From contig JBAZQN010000007.1 of assembly GCA_041645165.1 (NCBI GenBank), positions 8,318 through 72,317 of the forward strand: a stretch of DNA of 64,000 nucleotides, in the 5' to 3' direction. Positions 49,330 through 63,718 of the stretch are shown here, piece by piece. The notes beneath the pieces are model-generated. The model was not told the origin of the DNA and searched no databases. It saw only the letters and a list, made by a program, of their open reading frames with translations. Source of the DNA: Patescibacteria group bacterium. Lineage in GTDB: Bacteria; Patescibacteriota; Patescibacteriia; 2-02-FULL-49-11. A program made the translations under genes and the position numbers. Position 1 is the stretch's first letter; every line of letters starts with the position of its first letter.

Positions 49330-50523
49330 TCAATCAAATGTAGCCAGAACTTGAGGCCAATCGCGCCAGCCGAGCACGGAAGCGGCCTGGCGCTTCTGCG
49401 TTTGTTCTCCCCCATACACAATATACGACGAAGCGGCCTGCTTGGATATGGCACGGTAATACGCAATCCCGTCAAAAAATTCTGATGCTACGGTCTGGCC
49501 GGATTTGATTTCAATCGGCAGTAACCCTCCATGACGCTCAATAACCAGGTCAACTTCGTGGCCGGTTTTGTCCCTCCAAAAAAACGCCCGAGGCACAAGC
49601 CCGCGGTGAAAACGGTGCTTTAACCACTCCGCGATCACCATTGATTCAAAAATCCCTCCTCTCAAGTAATGGCTTTTGAGTTGACTGGCCTGTGTAATAT
49701 GGAGAAGGGCGCACAACACGCCCGTATCATAAAAATAAATTTTTGGCGTTTTCACCACCCGTTTATTAAAATTCCTGTGATGCGGCTGCAATAAGAAAAT
49801 AATGAAGCTCGCTTCCAGGATGGAGAGCCACGCCTTCACGGTTGCCTGATTAATGCCGCAATCGTTGCCAAGCGAGGTGATATTAAGGAGTTGGCCAACC
49901 CGTGCCGCTACGAGCTGTAAAAATTTTCTAAAAGTGCTGAGGTTTTCGATATTTTTAATCAGCCGCACGTCGCGCTCCACATAGGTCTGAATATAATTTT
50001 GGTAATAACTGGATGCGTCCATCTTTTGATCAAATAGCTTAGGGTAGAATCCCTTCAATAGTACTTCCTCAATCGTTATCCGAGTAAACCCCTTATACGC
50101 TTCGGCCAATTCTTCAAGCGCAAGCGGCAGCAAATGCGCGATGGCAACCCGGCCGGCAAGCGACTGGGTAATGCCTTCCAGCAATAAAAAATTCTGTGAG
50201 CCGGTCAAAATATACTGGCCGTTCTTGCGTGTTTCGTCCGCGATTGTTTGCAAGAGGGAAAAAAGCTTAGGCACCCGCTGCGCTTCATCAATCACCGCCC
50301 CGTCCGCATACTGGCCAAGCAGGCCTTTCGGATCCTTTTCAGCAAACTCCCTCGTTTCCAGATCTTCAAGGTTGAGGTAAGGTTTAGTGGGGAAAAGGGA
50401 TCTGACGAGGGTAGTTTTGCCAGACTGTCGAGGACCTGTCACGGCAACGACCGGATAGTGTCGAGTGTATTCTTTAATTTTTTTCGCTAGGGTTCTCTTA
50501 ATCATGTTATTATGATACTCCAC
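49330..50523 (-). CDS. AAA+ ATPase (AAA_14 plus DUF4143 family)
   Basis: Walker A GPRQSGKTT, Walker B AVIDEAQ, and a C-terminal DUF4143-like region. Confidence 0.75.
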   Translation of the reverse strand: MEYHNNMIKRTLAKKIKEYTRHYPVVAVTGPRQSGKTTLVRSLFPTKPYLNLEDLETREFAEKDPKGLLGQYADGAVIDEAQRVPKLFSLLQTIADETRKNGQYILTGSQNFLLLEGITQSLAGRVAIAHLLPLALEELAEAYKGFTRITIEEVLLKGFYPKLFDQKMDASSYYQNYIQTYVERDVRLIKNIENLSTFRKFLQLVAARVGQLLNITSLGNDCGINQATVKAWLSILEASFIIFLLQPHHRNFNKRVVKTPKIYFYDTGVLCALLHITQASQLKSHYLRGGIFESMVIAEWLKHRFHRGLVPRAFFWRDKTGHEVDLVIERHGGLLPIEIKSGQTVASEFFDGIAYYRAISKQAASSYIVYGGEQTQKRQAASVLGWRDWPQVLATFD

Positions 50524-50907: not shown

Positions 50908-51639
50908 CTATTTTTCCCCAAGAAAGCTTACGATTTTCTGCTCAAGGATTTTACGGAAATCTTTAAGATGCATGACATGGCTTGCGGGTAAAAATTCCCG
51001 AAGTTCGCCGCGGAAATTGATCTTGGATTTCTTCAATAAAGCAAGAACTTGAGTGAGATCGTCTTTTTCCTTCACCAATGGATAGTTTCCCGAAAGCAAA
51101 AAGAAATAATCGTAAAAATCCCTTGGTTTATGACGATTGATAAGTGCTTTCATTTTACCTTTAATGATTTCTTCTTTCGGTAAATGGACAAGGGTATAGG
51201 GCTGAATATAGTCATTTTCAATCAGCGTTCTGACGCCCCTAATCCAATTGTCATTGCGCAGAGAAACCTCAAAATAAATTTCAGTGATTTTATCGTAGGC
51301 GCTAAATTCAAATATGCCCAAGTATCCTCCGGTTGTGTATTTCCCTTCTTTGAGGGAAACGTGGATACCGGTCTTCTCGATATTGGCCAAGGTATTGATA
51401 AAAAGTTTCTCAACTTTATGTTTGGCAATTTTCACACCGGTAAAATCAAGATCTTCTGAAAAACGAGGACTATGGAAAACAATCCGCAAAGCTGTGCCGC
51501 CCTTGAAGAGCAGACGATCCGCATCGGGCAATTGGTAAAGATACGACAAAAACAAGTGCTGGCAATATTCTCGAACGACATTTCCGAGTTTAGTTTGCGT
51601 GTGATCAGTAAATTTTTGGAGGTTTGCGCGTGTCAACAT
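50908..51639 (-). CDS. AbiEii/AbiGii-family nucleotidyltransferase toxin (type IV TA)
   Basis: GGTALRIVFHSPRFSEDLDFT is the DUF1814/AbiEii signature. Confidence 0.7.
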   Translation of the reverse strand: MLTRANLQKFTDHTQTKLGNVVREYCQHLFLSYLYQLPDADRLLFKGGTALRIVFHSPRFSEDLDFTGVKIAKHKVEKLFINTLANIEKTGIHVSLKEGKYTTGGYLGIFEFSAYDKITEIYFEVSLRNDNWIRGVRTLIENDYIQPYTLVHLPKEEIIKGKMKALINRHKPRDFYDYFFLLSGNYPLVKEKDDLTQVLALLKKSKINFRGELREFLPASHVMHLKDFRKILEQKIVSFLGEK

Positions 51640-52231
51640 ACATTTGCTTGATACGCTTTAACATACCCGGCCTCTTGAACAGTTTTGCATATTCAATCAG
51701 TTTCGGCCTGTCAATGTTCCGCAGTTTCAAACGATCATTCAGGGACACTTTTTTGAGATCAACAAAATACAGATAATCAGCCAGCGCCTTTTCCGGCTCG
51801 GCAATCAAAACTTTATAACGATCGACTTCCCGTAATTCATAACCGGTGAATGCCTCGGTTTTAATATGACGATAAGTGAAATTCCCGATTGGCGTTTCAA
51901 ATTCCCTGGAAGTTTTAGTGGTTATTGAAGTATTTCCATACACCACTTCTGGAATAATTTTATAATAAGATAGCGCCGTTTCCAGCGAGACATAAGATGG
52001 CTGATAAAGCTTGTTCGCGATAAAAAAGTAATCCGGGTGGCTGTCTTTAATTGTATAAAAATTATTGCGCAACTTTACAAAAAGACCGCTCGTTAAATTC
52101 GAGGAAATAAAATTAGCCGCTCTTTTCAAGGACACATTGAAAACGCCCTTGAATTCTTGTGGAGTAAACACCTCTAATCCTATTTTTTTAAGTTTTTCTT
52201 CCACTTCTATACGTTTCAGTTTTAGTGCCAT
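51605..52231 (-). CDS. AbiEi-like antitoxin / transcriptional regulator
   Basis: It is immediately upstream of and overlaps the AbiEii gene. Length and composition are typical of AbiEi. Confidence 0.6.
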   Translation of the reverse strand: MALKLKRIEVEEKLKKIGLEVFTPQEFKGVFNVSLKRAANFISSNLTSGLFVKLRNNFYTIKDSHPDYFFIANKLYQPSYVSLETALSYYKIIPEVVYGNTSITTKTSREFETPIGNFTYRHIKTEAFTGYELREVDRYKVLIAEPEKALADYLYFVDLKKVSLNDRLKLRNIDRPKLIEYAKLFKRPGMLKRIKQMYVDTRKPPKIY

Positions 52232-52760: not shown

Positions 52761-55136
52761 TCAGAGTTTCTCAAAATCCTTTTCCGAAATTCCGAGCCCG
52801 AGATTCCTCATCACGCTATAGGCGTCTGCGGCGCGGCCGAGGAAATAGCGCTTACCGTCTTTGGGGTTGATATACCACGCCTCTCCCCTGCTCTCTACCT
52901 GCAGAAATATCTTGCCCTTATGCTTATTGGCAAACGCGATATCAGTGCGCACCTTAGCGGTGCCATGCACCGTGGGCGCGCTTCCTTGCTCGATCTCTTG
53001 CTTATCGCCCATGCCGTCGCCATCCGTATCGGCTTTCGCCTTATCCGTTCCCAGCGCGTCTTCGAGCAGATCCGACAATCCATCTTTATCTGCATCCTCC
53101 CCTGCCATCTGCACGAGCCCCACGGGAATTTTTGACAAATCAACTGTCTTTACGCCAACCCCCTGCTGGCGCATAATCGCATACGCATCATCCGCACGGC
53201 CTAAGTAATACGCGGTCGTGTCCCGCACGCTAAAATACCAGGCTTCACCATGTTTCTCGACCTGGAGAACAATTCTCCCCAAAAGCGACCTCCCCTTGCT
53301 GCTGGAAATTTTCTTTGAGGACAAGGGCGCAGAAGACGATTGAGGCTGGAGGTTCTGCGACAGTGATGGCGCGGGTGACGGAGCGGCTGAAGAGGAGGGG
53401 GTCGCCGCAGGAGGAGCAGCTACCGGCCTGCCGAGCGAGAGCCCGGCAAGCACCTCACGCTCAAACTGCGCGACAAGATCGTCAAATTTCTTCTGATCGC
53501 TGCCGTACCACTCAAACATGACAACCATCACGCGATCCTTCTCTCGTATGCGATAACCGGCGCCAAACCATTCAGCGGTGTTCCCCGTTTCTTCATTTTC
53601 GAAACGGTATCGGTAGTGGATGCCATCCGGCACCTCGCCGTTCACACGGTAATGAAATGATGACTGATAACGTTTGGGAGTGTAGAGAGACGCGACGGTA
53701 AAATCGCTGGCAATGATATTCTTAATAGAATCAAAATACTGTTCATTTGTCGCGTTTTCTACGCTTGAGGTTTGTTCCACAAGATACACGCCCCAGCCTA
53801 ACTCCGGTATGTCCTGATTTTGGCCGCTCGCCGGATGGCCGGAATGGTTAAGCGGCTTGAGCACCCATGGCTTGGGTACGGTAATCGTAAAGTGAGGTTT
53901 CGCGTGTTCGTAATACCGCTGTTCTGTAAAAGGAGCGCCATCATCCTTCAACACAAGCGTTTTGAACATGCTGTCAATCTTGTCTTTATCTTTCTTGTTT
54001 TTGCCTTCATACCAGGTGAGCGTGACAATGTATTGCTTACTTGGGAATAGGGCGGTATATAACTCCCCTTCCGACACTTGTTTTGCGAAACGTTTGCCGG
54101 TCTTTCCGCTCACCACCATATCCCCCTGTTGAATAAGAGAAGAGATCTTCTGGAGTATGTTAGCACTTACTTCCAGGATATGCGGCGTGATGAGAAGCTC
54201 CGTAGGCGCCCAAGATGCACTCAAAAATCCACCGTCGGGATCGTCATTTTCCACGCCTATGGCGTTCTCGTCATCGTGAAAAAATTTCCAGCCATCCGGT
54301 TTCGTCATCTTAAGATAAGGGATAGTGCTGGTAAACACGTTGATATTTTTCAGCCCCACTTGCTCCCTGATAAGCGCATCTATCCTGCCCTGCAAAGGTG
54401 AAACGCTTGTGGACTTCTGGTATGCCTTCAAGAGCCACGGTTCTACCGTTGCCATGCTAATGGCGTATCCAAGGCTTCCCGTGTAATCAGAATGCGCTTC
54501 CGAAGTGATGCCGATAAGTTCTCCGCTCACATTCACGAGTGCGCCGCCGGATGATCCAAAGGAAATCACGGCGCCGGTTTTTATCCACGATTTTTGATAT
54601 TTTTCTAACGTGCCCGCGACCGTATCCACGCTTGCGGTAATGGTCTTCCCTCCAATGCTGGGGTACCCGAGCGCGAGCACCTCGTCGCCGGTTTTCACTG
54701 ACGCGTGCGTGCCGCGATTATAATAATCAAACTGGGTGATGCGGCTAAGACCCTCCACGTTGCGGATTTTCAAGAGCGCGAGATCAAGCTCCTTATTTTT
54801 GTCGATCACGTGGGCGGAATAACTGCAGTCCGGCTCCTCGGTGAGCGATGTGGTAAGGCATACGATGTACGCGGTTGCGAGGGGCTCCCGGAACCGATCC
54901 TCGCTGTGGATGACGTGGTAATTGGTGAGCATGTCGCCCTGGTTATTGATGATAACTCCCGAACCATAGCCCACGAGGACGAGATTGCGATAATTATCCT
55001 CAATGTAAGTCTTGATTTTTACCACAGCCTTATGCGCGTCATCCGCGTTCACCGCCGCGCGTGCGGGCATAGCGGTGCTGACAACAAACAAGATTGCAGC
55101 CATGATAATGACAAATGTTCGGGAAATGGTATACAT
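52761..55136 (-). CDS. secreted trypsin-like (S1C/HtrA-family) serine protease with a Pro/Ser-rich linker, TSP3-like calcium-binding repeats and two ~45-aa C-terminal modules
   Basis: Catalytic triad contexts TNYHVI, D, GSSGGALVN. DTDGDGMGD / DADKDGLSD repeats. The duplicated LQVE(K/S)(H/R)GEAWY...YFLGRA(D/A)DAY modules. Confidence 0.7.
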   Translation of the reverse strand: MYTISRTFVIIMAAILFVVSTAMPARAAVNADDAHKAVVKIKTYIEDNYRNLVLVGYGSGVIINNQGDMLTNYHVIHSEDRFREPLATAYIVCLTTSLTEEPDCSYSAHVIDKNKELDLALLKIRNVEGLSRITQFDYYNRGTHASVKTGDEVLALGYPSIGGKTITASVDTVAGTLEKYQKSWIKTGAVISFGSSGGALVNVSGELIGITSEAHSDYTGSLGYAISMATVEPWLLKAYQKSTSVSPLQGRIDALIREQVGLKNINVFTSTIPYLKMTKPDGWKFFHDDENAIGVENDDPDGGFLSASWAPTELLITPHILEVSANILQKISSLIQQGDMVVSGKTGKRFAKQVSEGELYTALFPSKQYIVTLTWYEGKNKKDKDKIDSMFKTLVLKDDGAPFTEQRYYEHAKPHFTITVPKPWVLKPLNHSGHPASGQNQDIPELGWGVYLVEQTSSVENATNEQYFDSIKNIIASDFTVASLYTPKRYQSSFHYRVNGEVPDGIHYRYRFENEETGNTAEWFGAGYRIREKDRVMVVMFEWYGSDQKKFDDLVAQFEREVLAGLSLGRPVAAPPAATPSSSAAPSPAPSLSQNLQPQSSSAPLSSKKISSSKGRSLLGRIVLQVEKHGEAWYFSVRDTTAYYLGRADDAYAIMRQQGVGVKTVDLSKIPVGLVQMAGEDADKDGLSDLLEDALGTDKAKADTDGDGMGDKQEIEQGSAPTVHGTAKVRTDIAFANKHKGKIFLQVESRGEAWYINPKDGKRYFLGRAADAYSVMRNLGLGISEKDFEKL

Positions 55137-55232: not shown

Positions 55233-56036
55233 TTACTTTGAGACCTCATTTGAAGGCGCGCCCTTTATTGTATTTAATTCTTTATACTGCAAATACGTGT
55301 AGGCGATGAATACAGGAGTGATGATGCTGGTGATAATTTGTATGATGTTTTGCCATACTGCGCTGAAGATCTTGTCGCCTGTGAACATTTTCACGGGAAT
55401 GGAGAGGATGACGTAGATCAAGACTGAGATAACGAGGACAAACAGCGACCTTCCAAATATCGCCCACCAATATCCTGTTATTATTTCCTTACTTCGCTTC
55501 AATGACGCGCGGATTCCCGAATTTTCGAAAACCACCACAAATAACGCAAACGAATAATACACCCAATAGATAATGCCAGGTACGATGAGGAGAAGGGACA
55601 ACAACACAATTAACAATCCGTACAGAAAGCCCGCACCTACCACTTTCCACCAATAGCGCTGCGCGCGTTTGAATGTCTCTCGCACCGATTCGGAGGGCAG
55701 TGACTGCATGCGGAGACATATCGCCGTAGAGGTAAGAATGCTGAGGTAAACAAGCAGAAGAAGCCACACGATACCGAAGATGCCCAGAATAATATTCACA
55801 ATCGCCTCCTCTCTTGCGCTCCCCTTATGAAGTACCATGATTATCACATTAAGAAGCAGCAATACACGGGGGAGCAATCCTACGAGGATTATCAATGCGT
55901 AAGGCTTGAGCTGTGAAAGGACGAGCTCAACCGCCTGTTTGAATAGGTCGGGAGGACTGCTAAGTGTGGGTCGTTGAATTGTAAGTGGTTGCATATCATT
56001 GGTCATACGTGATGGAGTGAGATTTAATGCCAACAT
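55233..56036 (-). CDS. polytopic membrane protein, function unknown (DUF975-like)
   Basis: Six or more predicted TM helices, no motifs. Confidence 0.4.
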   Translation of the reverse strand: MLALNLTPSRMTNDMQPLTIQRPTLSSPPDLFKQAVELVLSQLKPYALIILVGLLPRVLLLLNVIIMVLHKGSAREEAIVNIILGIFGIVWLLLLVYLSILTSTAICLRMQSLPSESVRETFKRAQRYWWKVVGAGFLYGLLIVLLSLLLIVPGIIYWVYYSFALFVVVFENSGIRASLKRSKEIITGYWWAIFGRSLFVLVISVLIYVILSIPVKMFTGDKIFSAVWQNIIQIITSIITPVFIAYTYLQYKELNTIKGAPSNEVSK

Positions 56037-56899
56037 AGTGAAGGTTTTTCACCGATGATTTTCTCCAAGTAGGTGATTGCGTCCCGCTGGTCTCCCAAAC
56101 GGTCTGCCAAGCCCACATCCAATGCGCGTTTACCCAACATGGTTGATCCATCGGCAAGGTTCTTGATAGCCGCTTCATCAAGTCCTCTATTGACCGCCAC
56201 ATCTTGGACGAACATATCGTGGAGCGCCACGATGTCCCGCATCATGAGCTGTCTTTCCTCATTTGTTAGTGGCTTATTTGAGTTTCCAATATCTTTGTAT
56301 TGTGCGGATACTAAGCGTTCGTATACGAGCCCTTCACGATTATTTTTTCCTGTTTCCTCAAGAAAAGACCAGTTGACGCCTATCCCACCTACATCAGATG
56401 TAGGTGAAACGAAAATCGTATCGGCGCCGCTCGCGGCTAAATATGCGGACGAAGTACCGCTGCTTCGTATGACCGCAACCGTCGGCTTCTGCACCCGCTT
56501 GAACGCGTCGGCAATTTCTTTCCCCGCAGTGAGGGAACCGCCGTATGAATCAAACTCGAGCAACACCGCCTTGACGCGATCCAGTCCTTCAGCCTGCTCA
56601 AGGTAGTGAATGATCCTGTCCGACGATACCCTGCTCTCTCGCTCCTCATTTTCATCTGATTTATCATCACCAGAGTTCGACTCATTCGGTATATAAGTTA
56701 AGATGGTTCCATGCACCTCGATGCCCATTACATTGCCGTCTGGACAGATTTCTGACGATACACTCATCTCCCCACGAGTCGAATCTTTTCCAAAATGGTT
56801 CTGATAATTCAACGTCCAATACGAAACCAACGTTCCGACAACGAGGAAGTAAAAAAGTACTTTCAACGATCTCATTGTGCTTTCAAATGCTGGGGACAT
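56024..56899 (-). CDS. sppA: signal peptide peptidase SppA (S49 family)
   Basis: VAVIRSSGTSSAYLAASGADTIFVSPTSDVGGIGV is the S49 catalytic-Ser region. Confidence 0.7.
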   Translation of the reverse strand: MSPAFESTMRSLKVLFYFLVVGTLVSYWTLNYQNHFGKDSTRGEMSVSSEICPDGNVMGIEVHGTILTYIPNESNSGDDKSDENEERESRVSSDRIIHYLEQAEGLDRVKAVLLEFDSYGGSLTAGKEIADAFKRVQKPTVAVIRSSGTSSAYLAASGADTIFVSPTSDVGGIGVNWSFLEETGKNNREGLVYERLVSAQYKDIGNSNKPLTNEERQLMMRDIVALHDMFVQDVAVNRGLDEAAIKNLADGSTMLGKRALDVGLADRLGDQRDAITYLEKIIGEKPSLCWH

Positions 56900-57022: not shown

Positions 57023-57268
57023 TTAATTACCTATAAAATTCAATACGACACCCATAATTATCAAACAAATTCCCAAAAGCGTAAACGGAATTTTTATCAG
57101 GATTCGAGTTTGCTCATTTTTATCCTGAAATAATTCCCTGAATCTACCATAGCCGGGGAAGATAGTAAATAAATAGTATATCTTACCCAATGCTGAAATA
57201 ATGATGGGGAACTGCATTAATGCTATTATGACAAAACCAAATATAATCAGACGTATTGCTGTACTCAT
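57023..57268 (-). CDS. small two-TM membrane protein (possible immunity or orphan)
   Basis: 81 aa, hydrophobic, immediately downstream of the RHS remnant. Confidence 0.3.
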   Translation of the reverse strand: MSTAIRLIIFGFVIIALMQFPIIISALGKIYYLFTIFPGYGRFRELFQDKNEQTRILIKIPFTLLGICLIIMGVVLNFIGN

Positions 57269-57279
57269 AGACTAAGCTA

Positions 57280-58085
57280 TTATTCACTACTCTGGGTCTT
57301 TTCTAATCCAACCGCCAAGAAAACCGAATCCTGTCTTAAGAACTGACCAATATTCTGCTTGTAGTACCTGGCGTTCGCATACGTCAAACTGGTGTCCCTG
57401 TCATACATGTGCCCTGTAAACTTCCTCTGTTCGTCGAAGGAGCCTGATTTCCAGTCAATCCTCATTGATCCGTAGGGGTAGTAGTCCAATAATTGTACCA
57501 TGCCTCCGGTGCTATTCGTAGCGACGTTAGAACCCGTCAGATGATCCGTGTGGATGTATTGGAGGGTTGAGCCTTCCACTGTGGCAACCAGCTGGCTTCC
57601 TGCGTAGATATGCTTACTATTCTTCGTCCCATCGCTATTATACAGCTTATTCGCATACCGCGTCGTCACGCTTCCTGAAACCAGTTTCGTCCTCTGGCCT
57701 GTATGGTCGTACTGATAGGTGACGGTGGAACCTGTTTTCTGGGATTGGGTCAGCTGGTTGGCGTAGTTCCATGAGTGAGTCCAGGTGGAATCAGAGGTCA
57801 GGTTGCCGTTGTTATCATACGCGTAGGTCACGCCGTTGACCGACGTTGCCGCATGGGGGTTCGCGTAATTGGTGCCTTGGTAGAGGTAAGCCCCGACATC
57901 TGACTTGTTAGAGATGTTGCCGATGGCGTCGTAGGAATACGTTTGCGTGAAGTTTCCTGGACTGGTGGATGTGGCGTTGGTGGCGATAGCGGAGGTAAGG
58001 CGATGCAGATCATCATAGGCATGGGTGATGGTATCCGCGTCTGGCTCTGCATTTGGCGCGATTGCGGGGGCTATTTCGTCGAATA
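57280..58085 (-). pseudogene. RHS/YD-repeat C-terminal fragment, truncated and frameshifted remnant
   Basis: 57280-57831 encodes YDHTGQRTK...YANARYYKQNIGQFLRQD but stops right after the RHS core. 57828-58052 continues in another frame. The DNA is near-identical to 59200-59640 and 61590-62040. Confidence 0.55.
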
Positions 58086-58129: not shown

Positions 58130-58417
58130 TCAATCAATCATAATGCCTATATTATGCAATTGTTTCTTTGGGTCCCAATTTTCTGGTTCATTGTCTATCT
58201 TATCTCTCCATGGCATTCCCTCCTCTATCCACTTTTTACGCAATTCCAAATGCCGTTTCTCGCGCTCTTGCGCAGTCTTACCGAAATCATGATATCCATA
58301 TTGTATATGACAACATGGGCAAATATTATCGGACTGACTGTCTCCCTTCCATGCAGGCTCATGATAAACCGAATATATATCGTACCCGCATACCGGGCAA
58401 TAAGAATCGTTAGTCAT
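58130..58417 (-). CDS. small Cys-rich (zinc-ribbon-like) protein, candidate immunity protein
   Basis: CPVCG...CPCC. Its start is 3 nt after the stop of the upstream RHS-CT cassette. Confidence 0.4.
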   Translation of the reverse strand: MTNDSYCPVCGYDIYSVYHEPAWKGDSQSDNICPCCHIQYGYHDFGKTAQEREKRHLELRKKWIEEGMPWRDKIDNEPENWDPKKQLHNIGIMID

Positions 58418-58420
58418 ATC

Positions 58421-59656
58421 TCATTCCTTAATAACGTTATCAACTTTATTCCAATCAACCAACTCGCCTTGTTGGTTATTCCAATAATCCAGATTTGTTC
58501 CTTGTCCATGAACGGCAGGGTCTGGTTTGAAGAACGTCCTGATAGTGCCGTCCGGATTGTAGGAACCGAGCGTGTTCGCTGCTTCGTCATAGACTCTGAC
58601 AATGCCATCTTTATCAATCTTAGTCGGCAACTTATCGCTCTGTGCTCTCTGAAGAAAGTCGCGAGCCAAATCTGTATATTCGTCAGCGCTCCGAGCGCCG
58701 AATTCGCTAGCATGGTCCAAGTAATGTTCTTTATATTTTGTAGGGCTGGCCCACGCCTTAGCTCCTTTCAACCCTTTCGACGCATCCGCCACATTATCGA
58801 AGTGGCCCGCAACGAGTCTCGCTGCCTTACCGTATCCGCCTCCAACGGATAGAAGCCCAATGCCTACGCCTGCAAGAGTAATACTCTTCTGAATTTTGGT
58901 CGAGTTTGGATTAAGCCAAGTCTTTACGAGATCATAGACGTCCCAGACCGTAAAACCCGCTTCAACTGCAAGGTACATTAATCCTGCGATACTGAATGTA
59001 ACCGGTTCAGTGCCGAACGGGTCAATATATTTCATCGGATTATTATTCGCGTATGCATAGCTGTTCAATCCTTGTGGATTGCTCAACAGTGCTGCCGACT
59101 GCGCTCCATCTCGAACACCAATAGTAAGATACACGGGATCCTGTGATAAGAACCGTCCAATCCCCTGCTTGTAATACCTCGCATTGGCATACGTTAAACT
59201 GGTATCCCTATCAAACTCATGCCCCGTGAACTTCCTCTGTTCGTCGAAGGAGCCTGACTTCCAGTCAATCCTCATTGATCCGTAGGGATAGTAGTCCAAT
59301 AATTGTACCATGCCTCCACTACTGTTCGTAGCGGCGTTCGAGCCGGTGAGGTGGTCGGTATGGAGGTATTGAAGTGTCGTACCCTCGACTGTTCCTATGA
59401 GCTGGCTTCCTGCGTAGATATGCTTGGTTGCCGTGGTTTGCTTGATATTGTAGAGCTTGTTGGGATAGTGGCGGGCATAGCCGCTCACGCCGTCATAGTA
59501 CTTGGTCCTTTGCCCTGTGTGGTCGTATTGGTAGGTGACGGTGGAGCCTGTTTTCTGGGACTGGGTAAGCTGGTTAGCGTAGTTCCAAGTGTGAGTCCAC
59601 GTCGAATCTGACGTGAGATTGCCGTTGTTGTCATACGCGTAGGTCACGCCACCCAC
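58421..59656 (-). CDS. orphan RHS C-terminal cassette: RHS core plus a distinct C-terminal toxin domain of unknown type
   Basis: YDHTGQRTKYYDG...DRDTSLTYANARYYKQGIGRFLSQDPV (RHS repeat-associated core), then a ~230-aa unrelated C-terminal domain ending HGQGTNLDYWNNQ. Confidence 0.6.
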   Translation of the reverse strand: MGGVTYAYDNNGNLTSDSTWTHTWNYANQLTQSQKTGSTVTYQYDHTGQRTKYYDGVSGYARHYPNKLYNIKQTTATKHIYAGSQLIGTVEGTTLQYLHTDHLTGSNAATNSSGGMVQLLDYYPYGSMRIDWKSGSFDEQRKFTGHEFDRDTSLTYANARYYKQGIGRFLSQDPVYLTIGVRDGAQSAALLSNPQGLNSYAYANNNPMKYIDPFGTEPVTFSIAGLMYLAVEAGFTVWDVYDLVKTWLNPNSTKIQKSITLAGVGIGLLSVGGGYGKAARLVAGHFDNVADASKGLKGAKAWASPTKYKEHYLDHASEFGARSADEYTDLARDFLQRAQSDKLPTKIDKDGIVRVYDEAANTLGSYNPDGTIRTFFKPDPAVHGQGTNLDYWNNQQGELVDWNKVDNVIKE

Positions 59657-59696: not shown

Positions 59697-60233
59697 TCAA
59701 TTTTCGGTGCTTGTTATTGTATTATTCGGATTAAAGTATTTTTTATTCTTAAACAGTCCTATTAATAACACAATAAAGACTAAGAAATAAATGCCAAAAT
59801 TTACCGCCATGCCCACCGGAGAAAAAGTAAAATCAAGCGCTTCCTGACGTACCGCAAGTCCACGCGCCTCACGACTTATAATATATGCGTCCTTTGCCAA
59901 ATCGACATGAGTGAATGAAATGACAAACATGACTACCGTAAAGAATAAATAAAGAACAATACCCGCCACAGCTATTGGGAAGGCTCGTGGATATTGTTTA
60001 AATACAAAGACCGCTGCACTACCCGTAACAATCAATACCGCGAGAGCAAAGACTATATACAATACACCGAATCCAAAATTATTTAGTATATTGTAGTCGG
60101 ATACCGTTTGATAGCGGAGAAGATCGAAAAGTGTGCGTACGAACAACCAAACTAATACGATTATAAGAATCGTGATAATTTTGGGCCGTTTTGACTGCGT
60201 ACTGACCTGTGAATTTGTGACCGTTTGTTCCAT
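59697..60233 (-). CDS. four-TM membrane protein, function unknown
   Basis: Hydrophobic segments only. Confidence 0.4.
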   Translation of the reverse strand: MEQTVTNSQVSTQSKRPKIITILIIVLVWLFVRTLFDLLRYQTVSDYNILNNFGFGVLYIVFALAVLIVTGSAAVFVFKQYPRAFPIAVAGIVLYLFFTVVMFVISFTHVDLAKDAYIISREARGLAVRQEALDFTFSPVGMAVNFGIYFLVFIVLLIGLFKNKKYFNPNNTITSTEN

Positions 60234-60248
60234 ATGATTTTTTGTAGA

Positions 60249-60842
60249 TTACCACATCCGTTCGAATTCGGTGGATTTTATCAATTCTAAATTGGTGAGC
60301 TTAGCGCTTTCGAGCGCCTCTGCAACACGTTCTGTGACGAATCTTACACCTGTACCTTCCGCAAGGAAAATATCGCTTCCGTCCCACATTTTGAGATCGA
60401 AGTAATATCCATATCGTGCACGATATGATCCGTACTTCTCACTTGCAGGTACCTGCACCCACTCACTTTTACTATCATCAATGGGTCCACACTTACCCGT
60501 CACTACAAGCCCGCTATATCCTGACACTTCCTCTCTTTTTTTATTAAAAACTCTTGCCGGGAAAGTTGACCAGCCGGTGAACCTTCCCTTCTTCAACACT
60601 TCGACTACTCTATCGCTGATTAGGAGAATGGGAGGGTTTGCCGACATGAAGTCCTTTGGCCGTGTGCCGCCATTATGACCGAAGATCACGGGCTTTGCTG
60701 AACCTTCCTTTCCAGCAAGCAAGTCGAAGTCGTATTGTACCTTATCTTTGACTCTTTCAGGATACTCCTTAACATATTGGCTCATCGCGCCATATTCTAT
60801 CCCCGCTCCTAGAAGGTAAAATTGGTCTGGAGTGTATGCCAT
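60249..60842 (-). CDS. candidate immunity protein for the AHH toxin
   Basis: Its start codon is 1 nt after the toxin stop. The longer annotated ORF (to 61133) would overlap the toxin by 290 nt, so the internal MAYTPDQF start is preferred. Confidence 0.45.
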   Translation of the reverse strand: MAYTPDQFYLLGAGIEYGAMSQYVKEYPERVKDKVQYDFDLLAGKEGSAKPVIFGHNGGTRPKDFMSANPPILLISDRVVEVLKKGRFTGWSTFPARVFNKKREEVSGYSGLVVTGKCGPIDDSKSEWVQVPASEKYGSYRARYGYYFDLKMWDGSDIFLAEGTGVRFVTERVAEALESAKLTNLELIKSTEFERMW

Positions 60843-60843
60843 A

Positions 60844-62451
60844 TTATTCAATCTTAAAATCAATCCTATACTTCTCGGCTGTTTCATTCGCAAAATTATG
60901 TATCTGCTCTTGCGAAGCGTTTGGATTTTTACTGATAAACTTCTCCCACCTTGCATTATACTCGTTTGATAACTTCTGATGTGTCCCATCCGGTCCCTTC
61001 TGCCACCATGAACCGTACTTGGGATCATGGACATTAATACCGGCTCGCTCAAAGAATCCTCTAAAATTTTCCGTTTGCGGCAACATATGGTGCGCGTCGA
61101 ACCCGCTCCCCGGATTCTTTCCAGTGAGTTCAATTAAGTTACCCCTGAAATGCCCTGAGGTAAAACTCTTAAAGTTCATCGCTCTGTCGACCGCTTTTGC
61201 TGCGTCACTCGCCTTATCCGCAACCCTCGTCACCCGTGCCGCTGCTCCCAACCCGGTCGCGAAAGGAATAGCGGCGCCGCCAATATCAAGCCCCAGGCTC
61301 AACATTTCTCCCTTCACGTCTCCTCCATGAGCAATCGCACCACCTAATTTGTAAAGATCGTACGCGATGAAGCCGATATCAATAAAGGTATCAAGAAACT
61401 CACCTCCCTTGTCAACATACTTGAGAGGATTGTTGGTGACGTAAGAGTAAGAATTGAGGTATTGAGGATTGGAGAGATACTCTCGCATCCTCATGTTCGT
61501 TCCTTGTTGGATTGCCTGCTCGTCCCCGATAGAGAGGAATACGGGATCCTGCGACAGGAAACGCCCTATGTTCTGCTTATAATACCTCGCATTGGCGTAG
61601 GTAAGACTGGTGTCTCTATCGAACTCATGCCCCGTGAACTTCCTCTGCTCGTCGAAAGAGCCTGATTTCCAGTCTATCCTCATGCTGCCATACGGGTAGT
61701 AGTCCAATAATTGTACCATGCCTCCACTGCTGTTCGTAGCGACGTTCGAGCCAGTGAGGTGGTCGGTATGGAGGTATTGGAGGGTTGAGCCTTCCACGGT
61801 GGCAATCAGTTGACTTCCGGCGTAGATGTGCTTGGTTGCCGTGGTTTGCTTGATATTGTAGAGCTTGTTGGGATAGTGGCGGGCATAGCCGCTCACGCCG
61901 TCATAGTACTTGGTCCTTTGCCCTGTGTGGTCGTATTGGTAGGTCACGGTGGAGCCGCCTGTGGATTGGGTAAGCTGGTTAGCGTAGTTCCAAGTGTGAG
62001 TCCACGTCGAATCTGACGTGAGATTGCCGTTGTTGTCATACGCATACACGGCAGAGCCGACTTTTGTCACTGCATGAGGGTTGGCGTAATTGGTGCCTTC
62101 ATAGAGATACGTGCCTTGGTCAGATGCCGTGAGAATATTCCCAATCGCGCTGTAGGTGTACGTTCTTCCGGTGTTATCGCCATTCGCCGCGCCGGTAATT
62201 GAAGAGGTCAAAAGCCTATGCAAATCGTCGTAGGTATAGGTGATGGTCTTGCCTGCGTTGGTGCTGGACGCTTCTACGATCTGAGTGATATTCCCCACCT
62301 GGTCGTATGACCATTCTTGAGGTATCACATTTTTACGATCGTTAGCTTTTGATACCTCTGCATCATCACTTGCAATCCACCCCCTATCAATAACGATCGC
62401 TATATATTGGAAGTGGATATGAACGAGTATTGAACGCCATAATGCTCTCAC
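60844..62451 (-). CDS. RHS/YD-repeat protein (C-terminal portion) with an AHH-family HNH-like nuclease toxin domain
   Basis: YD repeats (TYTYDDLHRL, YAYDNNGNLT, YQYDHTGQRT), the RHS core (DRDTSLTYANARYYKQNIGRFLSQDPV) and C-terminal GSGFDAHHMLPQ (the AHH motif). Confidence 0.6.
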   Translation of the reverse strand: MRALWRSILVHIHFQYIAIVIDRGWIASDDAEVSKANDRKNVIPQEWSYDQVGNITQIVEASSTNAGKTITYTYDDLHRLLTSSITGAANGDNTGRTYTYSAIGNILTASDQGTYLYEGTNYANPHAVTKVGSAVYAYDNNGNLTSDSTWTHTWNYANQLTQSTGGSTVTYQYDHTGQRTKYYDGVSGYARHYPNKLYNIKQTTATKHIYAGSQLIATVEGSTLQYLHTDHLTGSNVATNSSGGMVQLLDYYPYGSMRIDWKSGSFDEQRKFTGHEFDRDTSLTYANARYYKQNIGRFLSQDPVFLSIGDEQAIQQGTNMRMREYLSNPQYLNSYSYVTNNPLKYVDKGGEFLDTFIDIGFIAYDLYKLGGAIAHGGDVKGEMLSLGLDIGGAAIPFATGLGAAARVTRVADKASDAAKAVDRAMNFKSFTSGHFRGNLIELTGKNPGSGFDAHHMLPQTENFRGFFERAGINVHDPKYGSWWQKGPDGTHQKLSNEYNARWEKFISKNPNASQEQIHNFANETAEKYRIDFKIE

Positions 62452-62893
62452 CGGATGCTTTTAGAGATTTTCAAGGTGCTTTGCGGTTACTATGCCCACC
62501 TCTGGAGGGTCTACTGGACTTCCCCTACCCCTGCGGCATCATTGTCCTGTAATGAAGTATATCACGGAGGAAATCGAACGAAAAAATCCATGGAAGCCGT
62601 CTTTCTGATACGGTGATAAAGGGGATGTTTGATCGAAATTCTCTCTCCTTGAATAGGGGGAAAGGTGCCCGCGTCACGAAATATCGGAGTGCGATCAGCA
62701 GCGGCTTCGCTTCAATGTGAGCAACAAATTGAGTATGCCCGCCCAAGGCTAGACTCCACCGACGTACATCCCCTACCCATGGGAGCAAAATCGTCTATTC
62801 ATTGAAGAACTAAGTGTTAAGAAGAGAGGAGAAAATAACATACGTATCCTCTTTATCTTATACTACAAATAGGATAGGGAAATCATTCAAATA

Positions 62894-63718
62894 TTACTTA
62901 GGTATTAACACTTCTATATCCAGAAGCTGATATAAATAATATTTAGTTTTTTCTATTACCTTATTGGTTAAACCATAAATTTGTTGATAATTATATTTGG
63001 CATTTTCTGACCACCAATTTTTTCCTTCTTCAATTGATTCTGTTAAATTTTTCTTCACCTCAACTACCCCTTTTTCTGTTAACCTACTGAATAATTCTTC
63101 CTGATTAAGTATTGTTTCGGCCATATACGCTTTTGAAATATAGGGGTCAACGAATCTATAATTTCCATGACGAAGATCTCCCCTTAATTTTGAACTACCA
63201 AAAACTCGTGATATATCTTTCACCCATTGCTTCAATGCTTCGTCGACTTCTTTTTTATTTATAGCAACTTTTTTAATATCGTTTTTCATTTCAGTTATAT
63301 AACGTACTATTTTATTTTTTACCGTCTCCATATCTTCTAGATAAGCGTATATATGATGTTCTAAAGCTTCATGGTTTGAAACTTTTTCATTACTTGTATA
63401 AAATTCGTTAAAATAAAGCGGGTATTTGCTTATTTTTTTTACAAACCAATCAATTGCTGTCAGTAATTTCCAATATTTTTCTACGATATCCCTATTAAAA
63501 CTTGATCCTTTTTTCGTATCGTCTGCTAAAGAAGGAGAAAAATACTCTGGATTAAGATAAATCAACAAATTGGATAATAGATTTTCTATTTCATTTTGTC
63601 TACTAGGAGTACTCATACTTGCTTCTTCAATTCTACATCTCCAGTCGAGAAAACAGTACTTTGTTGATAGCCGACTGAAAGAGTGGGGTGCAGGCGGCCG
63701 GAACGCTGAAGTCTTCAA
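62894..63718 (-). CDS. hypothetical protein encoded in a strongly AT-rich segment
   Basis: 274 aa, K/E/N/Y-rich. Local composition is far more AT-rich than the flanks. Confidence 0.4.
   Translation of the reverse strand: MKTSAFRPPAPHSFSRLSTKYCFLDWRCRIEEASMSTPSRQNEIENLLSNLLIYLNPEYFSPSLADDTKKGSSFNRDIVEKYWKLLTAIDWFVKKISKYPLYFNEFYTSNEKVSNHEALEHHIYAYLEDMETVKNKIVRYITEMKNDIKKVAINKKEVDEALKQWVKDISRVFGSSKLRGDLRHGNYRFVDPYISKAYMAETILNQEELFSRLTEKGVVEVKKNLTESIEEGKNWWSENAKYNYQQIYGLTNKVIEKTKYYLYQLLDIEVLIPK

Follow-up and report, generated by a model that had tools for sequence, protein, structure and literature searches.

A 64,000-nucleotide (nt) stretch of the genome of a Patescibacteria group bacterium (NCBI GenBank assembly GCA_041645165.1, contig JBAZQN010000007.1, positions 8,318 to 72,317 of the forward strand; hereafter the window, with positions counted from its first letter) encodes a truncated RHS protein with an AHH-bearing C-terminal tip, followed directly by a gene for a protein of 197 amino acids (aa). 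This region is most probably an orphan cassette, a displaced 3′ part of a polymorphic toxin locus of the rhs/YD-repeat kind, which pairs a toxin tip of the DUF2380/SitA6, AHH type with an Imm11 immunity protein in a genome of the candidate phyla radiation (CPR). The reading is built on domain homologies, the fold of the immunity protein, a gene order conserved in other genomes, and the orphan structure of the array to which the cassette belongs.

Organisation of the cassette

Every feature of the toxin–immunity cassette is carried on the minus strand:

60844..62451, minus strand: orphan rhs 3′ cassette A, 535 codons plus TAA, with an RHS_repeat match of 37.5 bits; aligned with the tail of the main rhs gene and with the other orphans
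61399..62319, minus strand: conserved RHS/YD core, residues 45–351, delimited by nucleotide identity, repeat families D1/D2 and protein alignment A5
61177..61398, minus strand: Gly/Ala-rich hydrophobic linker or pre-toxin segment, residues 352–425, read from the sequence
60847..61176, minus strand: C-terminal toxin domain of DUF2380/SitA6 type, residues 426–535, from PF09533, TIGR02269, homologues and an AlphaFold2 (AF2) model
61087..61095, minus strand: AHH motif, A453 H454 H455, from alignment A2 and DSSP of the model
60979–60981, minus strand: codon of H491, an invariant column of alignment A2
60843..60846, minus strand: junction of TAA and 1-nt spacer, the same in the related loci L001 and L002
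60249..60842, minus strand: immunity gene for a 197-aa protein of predicted Imm11 fold (P0001; NCBI WC659_03705), from the Imm11 score, AF2 and Foldseek

The toxin open reading frame (ORF), whose earliest possible start is a GTG, occupies 62451..60844 as an RHS fragment of 535 codons, just as the original prediction had described it. Its C-terminus contains ...GSGFDAHHMLPQ...HDPKYGSWW..., the final 110 residues being NFKSFTSGHFRGNLIELTGKNPGSGFDAHHMLPQTENFRGFFERAGINVHDPKYGSWWQKGPDGTHQKLSNEYNARW...DFKIE followed by the stop codon, and the AHH tripeptide (A453-H454-H455) is encoded by nucleotides 61095..61087. The same prediction placed the start of the following ORF 1 nt past the toxin stop, and a single base (60843) does separate the TAA (60846..60844) from the ATG (60842..60840) of the immunity ORF, which encodes 197 aa and ends at 60249.

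Family assignment of the toxin tip

Searched alone, the toxin domain matches DUF2380 (Pfam accession: PF09533) at 30.8 bits (E 2.5e-7), above the Pfam gathering threshold of 26.3, with the match spanning the last ~90 residues of the toxin ORF; the entire ORF scores 27.4 bits. The NCBIfam model TIGR02269, 'SitA6 family polymorphic toxin lipoprotein', also matches the tip (E 1.5e-9, model positions 116–201 of 209), at a score of 37.7 bits that lies below the equivalog cutoff of 85.75 for full-length SitA6 lipoproteins; since the N-terminal part of the protein is here an RHS core, SitA6 lipoproteins share the toxin module alone. PF09533 has been equated with SitA6 toxins (PMC12077181), and SitA6 alleles or toxin modules have been termed AHH nucleases, with a 'presumed mechanism' and weak activity noted for SitA6 (PMC8546572).

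The original prediction had named the AHH nuclease family itself (Pfam accession: PF14412) and proposed a profile search for it. This family matches the toxin domain at 14.4 bits (E 0.04, profile positions 9–71 of 111), under its cutoff of 22.3, whereas PF09533 is passed; judged from these profiles, the tip is correctly labelled as a DUF2380/SitA6 toxin domain, and strict membership of PF14412 has to be given up. What stands is that the tip is a real toxin domain of AHH-like kind, whose homologues connect it to AHH and HNH_2: at E≤1, DUF2380 is matched by 42 of 44 toxin homologues, AHH by 33 (best 1.9e-5) and HNH_2 by eight, and at E≤1e-3 the counts are 35/43 for DUF2380 and 5/43 for AHH. A tip resembling neither AHH nor any HNH-like fold, the outcome named beforehand as fatal to the idea, was thus not what was found.

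The 138-aa toxin tip gave no matches in a word-indexed homology search, and an exhaustive HMMER search was needed to recover its relatives. Across 1.84 billion proteins, searched as representatives of clusters at 50% identity, 1242 relatives of the tip pass E≤1e-3, of which 511 also pass E≤1e-10. Nearly all of the 150 matches listed have the domain no more than 11 residues from the C-terminus, on carrier proteins that reach 4646 aa. RHS repeats were present in four of six long carriers that were scanned, another having DUF6443 alone and the last no match, and the heads of the scanned carriers include DUF6443, DUF6531/Big_9 or TcdB_toxin_midN. Known partners of Tox-AHH domains include Imm11, and their carriers include RHS and TcdB/TcaC proteins (PMC3482391); the position at the C-terminus of polymorphic-toxin carriers, beside an Imm11 partner, agrees with this context. 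An AHH tripeptide is meaningless by itself; the domain is nonetheless real, as borne out by the Pfam E-value, the number of homologues and the invariant residues. Assignment of the tip as a predicted nuclease of the AHH type, within the HNH superfamily, is well supported by homology, motif and topology.

Conserved residues and predicted fold

Within alignment A2, comprising 43 toxin-domain sequences at ~40% identity, residues A453, H454, H455, P477, W482, H491 and W502 are invariant, and R436, N438, L439, P458, F467, G471, Y498, N499 and F505 are nearly so. Set against the published Tox-AHH signature of [AG]HH, N, H, H and Y (PMC3482391), the family agrees in part: the AHH and the helix histidine H491 are invariant and Y498 is nearly invariant, but the 'N' position varies and the second helix histidine is absent.

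An alignment-based AF2 model of a 120-aa toxin construct has a predicted local distance difference test (pLDDT) score of 91.3. Secondary structure assigned by DSSP (construct numbering) comprises a strand at 36–40 ending in the AHH, a helical insert at 46–54, a second strand at 65–69 and a long helix at 72–93, with the invariant histidine (H76 of the construct, H491 of the ORF) near the start of that helix. The β-(α)-β-α layout of the model is compatible with a ββα-metal HNH fold plus an insert.

Fold and family of the immunity protein

Imm11 (Pfam accession: PF07791) matches the 197-aa protein at 21.3 bits (E 1.8e-4, profile positions 53–191 of 194); Imm43 is also matched, weakly, and no match to the double-CXXCG family PF09535 was obtained at E≤10. 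At least 213 relatives were found by profile search, many with precomputed PF07791 matches, and among 48 aligned homologues Imm11 is matched by 37 at E≤0.01 (best 6.9e-15) and Imm43 by three. The AF2 model is complete and confident from residue 1 (pLDDT 95.9), and Foldseek aligned it over 196 columns with Myxococcus xanthus MXAN_0049 (PDB accession: 6a4c; E 6.9e-10, probability 1.00, template modelling scores 0.70/0.65), the sole PDB match at E≤1e-3. Sequence searches of the PDB with the same protein gave chance-level matches only, with MXAN_0049 at E 0.47. MXAN_0049 has been shown experimentally to be the immunity protein of the AHH nuclease MXAN_0050 (PMC12077131). On the strength of the model, the 197-aa protein has the Imm11 fold and is named Imm11 here; the suggestion that this ORF encodes an immunity protein, to be examined by structure prediction and a search of the Imm families, is thereby well supported.

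Conservation of the toxin–immunity pair

Wherever a context was retrieved through the protein index, the toxin C-terminal domain lies directly 5′ of the immunity homologue. The carrier is an RHS protein of >844 aa in loci L001 and L002; an RHS fragment in L003; a 2189-aa SpvB/TcdB_toxin_midN/FG-GAP/RHS protein in L006 and L007, which belong to Candidatus Kerfeldbacteria, another CPR lineage; a YD protein of >3443 aa in L010; and, in L008 and L009 (Bellilinea caldifistulae), an orphan rhs fragment with a stop inside the toxin domain and an intact immunity gene.

GTDB species representatives, a set from which the window's genome is absent, contributed 27 loci (the L012–L037 set) from Planctomycetota, Chloroflexota, Bacteroidota, Actinomycetota, Hydrogenedentota and others. 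The toxin domain stands immediately 5′ of the immunity relative in 18 of them (hmmsearch E 1e-44 to 2e-7), and no recognisable toxin was found 5′ of it in the remaining nine, where the upstream ORFs are unrelated or spurious (ankyrin-like in L028). A canonical PF14412 toxin was also sought beside these nine immunity homologues, and none was found; they are likely to be orphan or poly-immunity genes.

The break in the Bellilinea caldifistulae toxin (DF967971.1; L008 5007–6627) is a stop between ...NFRENL and MEAHHVLPQ..., with an intact Imm11 gene and an adjoining IS110 transposase, a case in which the toxin has decayed and its immunity gene has been kept. Myxococcus PF09533 toxins are paired with double-CXXCG immunity proteins (PF09535), which belong to the same Pfam clan as Imm11 (PMC12077181); having Imm11 proper as the partner, instead of PF09535, varies a known theme only slightly.

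Start codon and toxin–immunity spacing

The longest form of the immunity ORF starts from TTG 61133, encodes 294 aa and would overlap the toxin ORF by 290 nt (61133 − 60844 + 1), exactly the overlap that had been calculated for it. The original prediction called this long form the annotated one; public annotation in fact uses the shorter form, at 197 aa both in the ENA gene call and in NCBI, as protein WC659_03705 of 'Patescibacteria group bacterium'. The prediction's preference for the internal start is borne out by homologues. Distant immunity homologues (39–50% identity) all start at a methionine equivalent to ATG 60842, and the upstream frame is closed by a stop after seven codons in L003 and after 18 codons in L006. 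An immunity gene that begins at TTG 61133, or at a TTG 9 nt 5′ of the ATG, and so overlaps the toxin gene, is therefore highly improbable. In favour of such a start, no stop interrupts the upstream frame over 97 codons, either in the window or in L001 and L002, and one public gene call (P0004) took a frame of this kind; that call is spurious, and, because the same frame is stop-closed in L003 and L006, the 97-codon extension reads as an accident of the overlapping toxin frame. The extension is unlike the N-terminus of any homologue, and the AF2 model needs none of it. The 294-aa form was accordingly rejected.

No Shine–Dalgarno sequence lies in range before the immunity ATG (the nearest candidate being AGGA at −25), and several other genes of the window bear strong AAGGAGG sites. 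Together with an ATG 1 nt past the toxin stop, this makes coupling of the two genes by termination–reinitiation plausible. L001 and L002 have an identical spacer, and longer ones occur in L003 (4 nt), L006 (5 nt) and L010 (31 nt); the '1-nt-coupled' arrangement first described is thus accurate for the window and its close relatives, as a local detail, and fails as a trait of the family.

An orphan rhs array

Cassette A is one of three 5′-truncated copies of the RHS core downstream of a main rhs gene, the others being cassette B and remnant C:

58421..59656, minus strand: orphan rhs cassette B, 411 codons, whose C-terminal domain is unrelated (ORF list, alignment, nucleotide comparison)
58130..58417, minus strand: 95-aa Cys-rich ORF, candidate immunity protein for B (weak CPCC match, E 0.063)
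57280..57831, minus strand: orphan rhs remnant C, 183 codons, lacking a toxin domain (ORF list, alignment, nucleotide comparison)

In the ENA copy of the contig (L004), the main rhs gene has its 3′ end near window position 64513, beyond the window, and the contig itself ends inside the gene, so that the N-terminal trafficking domains of the genome's own carrier were not recovered. The main gene has its own, unrelated 190-aa C-terminal domain with no family match, and is followed on its 3′ side by ORFs of 92 and 75 aa (the latter with weak matches to membrane families) and then by an ORF of 224 aa. The shared cores (repeat families D1 and D2) are 77–89% identical at the nucleotide level over 400–700 nt; that of cassette A has 81.4% identity to the main rhs gene over 699 nt and 89.3% to orphan B over 506 nt, and in the protein alignment divergence between cassette A and the main gene begins past the core. 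A truncated core copy, a divergent C-terminal domain and an immunity gene of its own together make cassette A an orphan rhs-CT module. Its residues 1–44 are unrelated to RHS, and its nominal GTG start has no Shine–Dalgarno sequence.

RHS cores usually end in a self-cleavage motif, PxxxxDPxGL. The motif is kept at the core end of orphan B, NNPMKYIDPFGT (IDPFGT), and of the main rhs gene, NNPLKYIDPVGL (IDPVGL); at the position where it is expected, the core of cassette A ends in NNPLKYVDKGGE, the core-end region at 61396–61434 (minus strand) reading NNPLKYVDKGGEF. The DKGGE variant is also found in the close relatives L001 and L002, and its being shared with the full-length L001 relative suggests that such a core end may still be functional. 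Residues 378–450, which take in most of the linker that follows, gave no Pfam match, PT-TG included.

The C-terminal domain of orphan B (~225 aa) has no Pfam or NCBIfam match, and its TGA is separated by a 3-nt spacer from the ATG of the 95-aa Cys-rich ORF (weak Cys_rich_CPCC match, as listed above); the two probably constitute an uncharacterised toxin–immunity pair. Remnant C ends right after the core (...QDSVFLAVGLEKTQSSE, then the stop codon), and an 81-aa hydrophobic ORF follows at 57023–57268 on the minus strand.

Proposed mechanism and alternatives

The cassette encodes the last ~300 residues of an RHS shell, a Gly-rich linker and a toxin domain of ~110 residues, assigned within the AHH-type HNH/EndoVII (His-Me finger) nucleases to their DUF2380/SitA6 branch. 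Homologous recombination across the 77–89% identical core shared with the main rhs gene could join the tip to a full-length RHS carrier, whereupon the toxin would be held inside an RHS cocoon, as in the 2189-aa Kerfeldbacteria relative. Aspartyl autoproteolysis of the core would free the toxin for delivery to a neighbouring cell, where it is predicted to cut nucleic acid, most likely DNA, with H454 and H455 on strand 1, H491 on the helix and a divalent metal as a putative metal and general-base site. The producing cell would be guarded by co-translated Imm11 protein binding the toxin domain stoichiometrically.

Several observations weigh against this scheme or parts of it. The toxin sequence of the window lies below the Pfam AHH threshold, and the immunity protein is 0.8 bit short of the Imm11 threshold (22.1). 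Members of the DUF2380-like family have no second helix histidine, N499 and W502 being conserved instead, and the position of the signature 'N' (H475) is occupied by H, N or D across the family. No homologue of the toxin with a solved structure turned up when the PDB was searched by sequence, whether with the single toxin sequence or with a profile; with the toxin model, Foldseek gave BrxU, Cap5 and HNH-Cascade as top matches in the PDB (E 5–9, none significant) and mostly HNH endonucleases among the viral models of BFVD (best E 0.87, not significant). The likeness of the model to HNH nucleases is therefore suggestive only, and the fold of the toxin is not claimed as demonstrated. A core ending in VDKGGE in place of DPxGL makes self-cleavage of cassette A uncertain, and the cassette has no credible start codon or Shine–Dalgarno sequence of its own, so its toxin may be silent in this genome until recombined.

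This last point raises the possibility, tentative yet one to be kept in view, that cassette A is a silent relic in which only the immunity gene works, guarding against the same toxin from neighbours as an 'orphan immunity' gene. The GTG without a Shine–Dalgarno sequence and the 44 non-RHS codons at the start are what such a relic would look like, orphan C is visibly decayed, and elsewhere the immunity gene outlasts its toxin, as in Bellilinea caldifistulae, or stands without one, as in nine of the 27 GTDB loci. Against it, the window copy has kept every invariant and near-invariant toxin residue, its frame runs open over 535 codons, and a core that over 699 nt still matches the main gene at 81% identity is sufficient for recombination; the idea is, moreover, compatible with the explanation of the parts as a DUF2380/SitA6 toxin tip with an Imm11 partner. 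It is unlikely, by comparison, that the tip is an AHH-like scaffold with an activity other than that of the AHH DNases, for example an RNase or a toxin with a non-DNA target. The sub-threshold AHH score, the missing second helix histidine and canonical asparagine, the family's own invariant proline and tryptophans, the lack of a significant structural match and the 'presumed mechanism' and weak activity noted for SitA6 (PMC8546572) would all fit a different chemistry. The HH dyad and the helix histidine, the core of a His-Me site, are invariant, however; homologues bridge to AHH and HNH_2; and the partner is Imm11, whose characterised toxin partner is the AHH nuclease MXAN_0050, tested on genomic or plasmid DNA (PMC12077131). 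There is a slim chance that the 'AHH...P...W...H...YN..W' clade (at least 1242 clusters at 50% identity, mostly RHS-borne) constitutes a functionally distinct branch of the His-Me finger toxins, with a single helix histidine and a dedicated Imm11 subclade.

Neighbouring genes

The immunity gene is followed, 15 nt downstream, by a further small gene:

59697..60233, minus strand: 178-aa protein with four predicted transmembrane segments (ORF list)

This protein has four hydrophobic segments and no family match, and its gene has a GC content of 38% against 48% for the window. It is missing after the homologous cassettes in L001, L002 and L006, which makes its link to the toxin system, and its membership of the cassette, uncertain; it may act as an entry-exclusion or second immunity factor, or it may be cargo unrelated to the system.

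Between cassette A and the main rhs locus there is a very AT-rich ORF (62894–63718, minus strand, 29% GC; no family match) that encodes 224 aa when read from the called start and 274 aa when read from a TTG; it is followed by ~440 nt of apparently non-coding DNA (62452–62893). A few kb downstream of the rhs array are a DUF4143/AAA_14 ATPase gene (49330–50523, minus strand) and an AbiEii-family gene (L004 gene table) with an overlapping gene for a 208-aa partner (50908–52231, minus strand); between these and the array lie genes for an S49 peptidase (56024–56899) and a 791-aa trypsin-like protein (52761–55136). The area downstream of the array looks like a variable or defence island.

Comparison with known systems

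Arrays of orphan rhs-CT/immunity modules were reportedly described in Enterobacteria (E. coli, Salmonella and Dickeya) by Poole in 2011 and by Koskiniemi in 2013 and 2014. The arrangement in the window resembles them in having a main rhs gene followed by 5′-truncated core copies with differing toxins and their own immunity genes, and in a shared core that forms a substrate for recombination to swap toxin tips. It differs in phylum, in the VDKGGE of cassette A compared with DPxGL, and in the small membrane-protein genes interspersed here.

The closest full-length carrier of the pair, the Kerfeldbacteria protein of L006 (2189 aa), shares SpvB, TcdB_toxin_midN, FG-GAP and RHS regions with the BC components (SpvB/TcdB_midN/RHS cocoon) of Tc toxins, and TcdB/TcaC proteins are among the delivery types of Tox-AHH domains (Zhang et al. 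2012, PMC3482391). The N-terminus of the window's own main rhs gene lies beyond the contig end, so the delivery class proposed here is an extrapolation from that relative.

The immunity protein of the window has the predicted fold of MXAN_0049 from the MXAN_0050/MXAN_0049 pair of Myxococcus xanthus, a type VI secretion system (T6SS) pair; its gene lies directly 3′ of a toxin with an invariant AHH motif, and by analogy this toxin is presumed to be a DNase neutralised by binding (PMC12077131). The two immunity proteins share only 18% sequence identity, however, and the window toxin falls in the PF09533 branch and not in PF14412; MXAN_0050 is a PAAR/T6SS effector, whereas the carrier here is of the RHS/TcdB type and the host a CPR bacterium. 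The toxin domain is homologous to that of the SitA6/SitI6 pair, which acts through outer-membrane exchange in myxobacteria (PF09533 above the gathering threshold; TIGR02269 E 1.5e-9). Unlike SitA6, the window protein has no lipoprotein signal or escort domain and is RHS-borne, and its partner is Imm11 proper and not the PF09535 protein that accompanies SitA6 (PMC12077181).

Biological significance

The system is of a kind already well known, and the understanding of how such toxin systems work is unchanged by it; the mildly informative points are the CPR host, the breadth of PF09533-like RHS tips and a dedicated Imm11 subclade. Two 'hypothetical' CPR genes can now be given names, as a SitA6/AHH-type RHS orphan tip and its Imm11 immunity protein. 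PF09533, described in Pfam as a myxobacterial lipoprotein domain of unknown function, is recognisable as a widespread RHS toxin tip in many phyla, accompanied by a dedicated Imm11 subclade. Should the tips prove to be a distinct branch, their substrate or chemistry could differ from that of the characterised AHH DNases. The locus adds a further example of RHS orphan arrays in Patescibacteria, where it may serve contact-dependent or Tc-like antagonism, and the presence of such tips on TcdB/RHS carriers in CPR bacteria could mean that these episymbionts turn cocoon toxins on their hosts or competitors.

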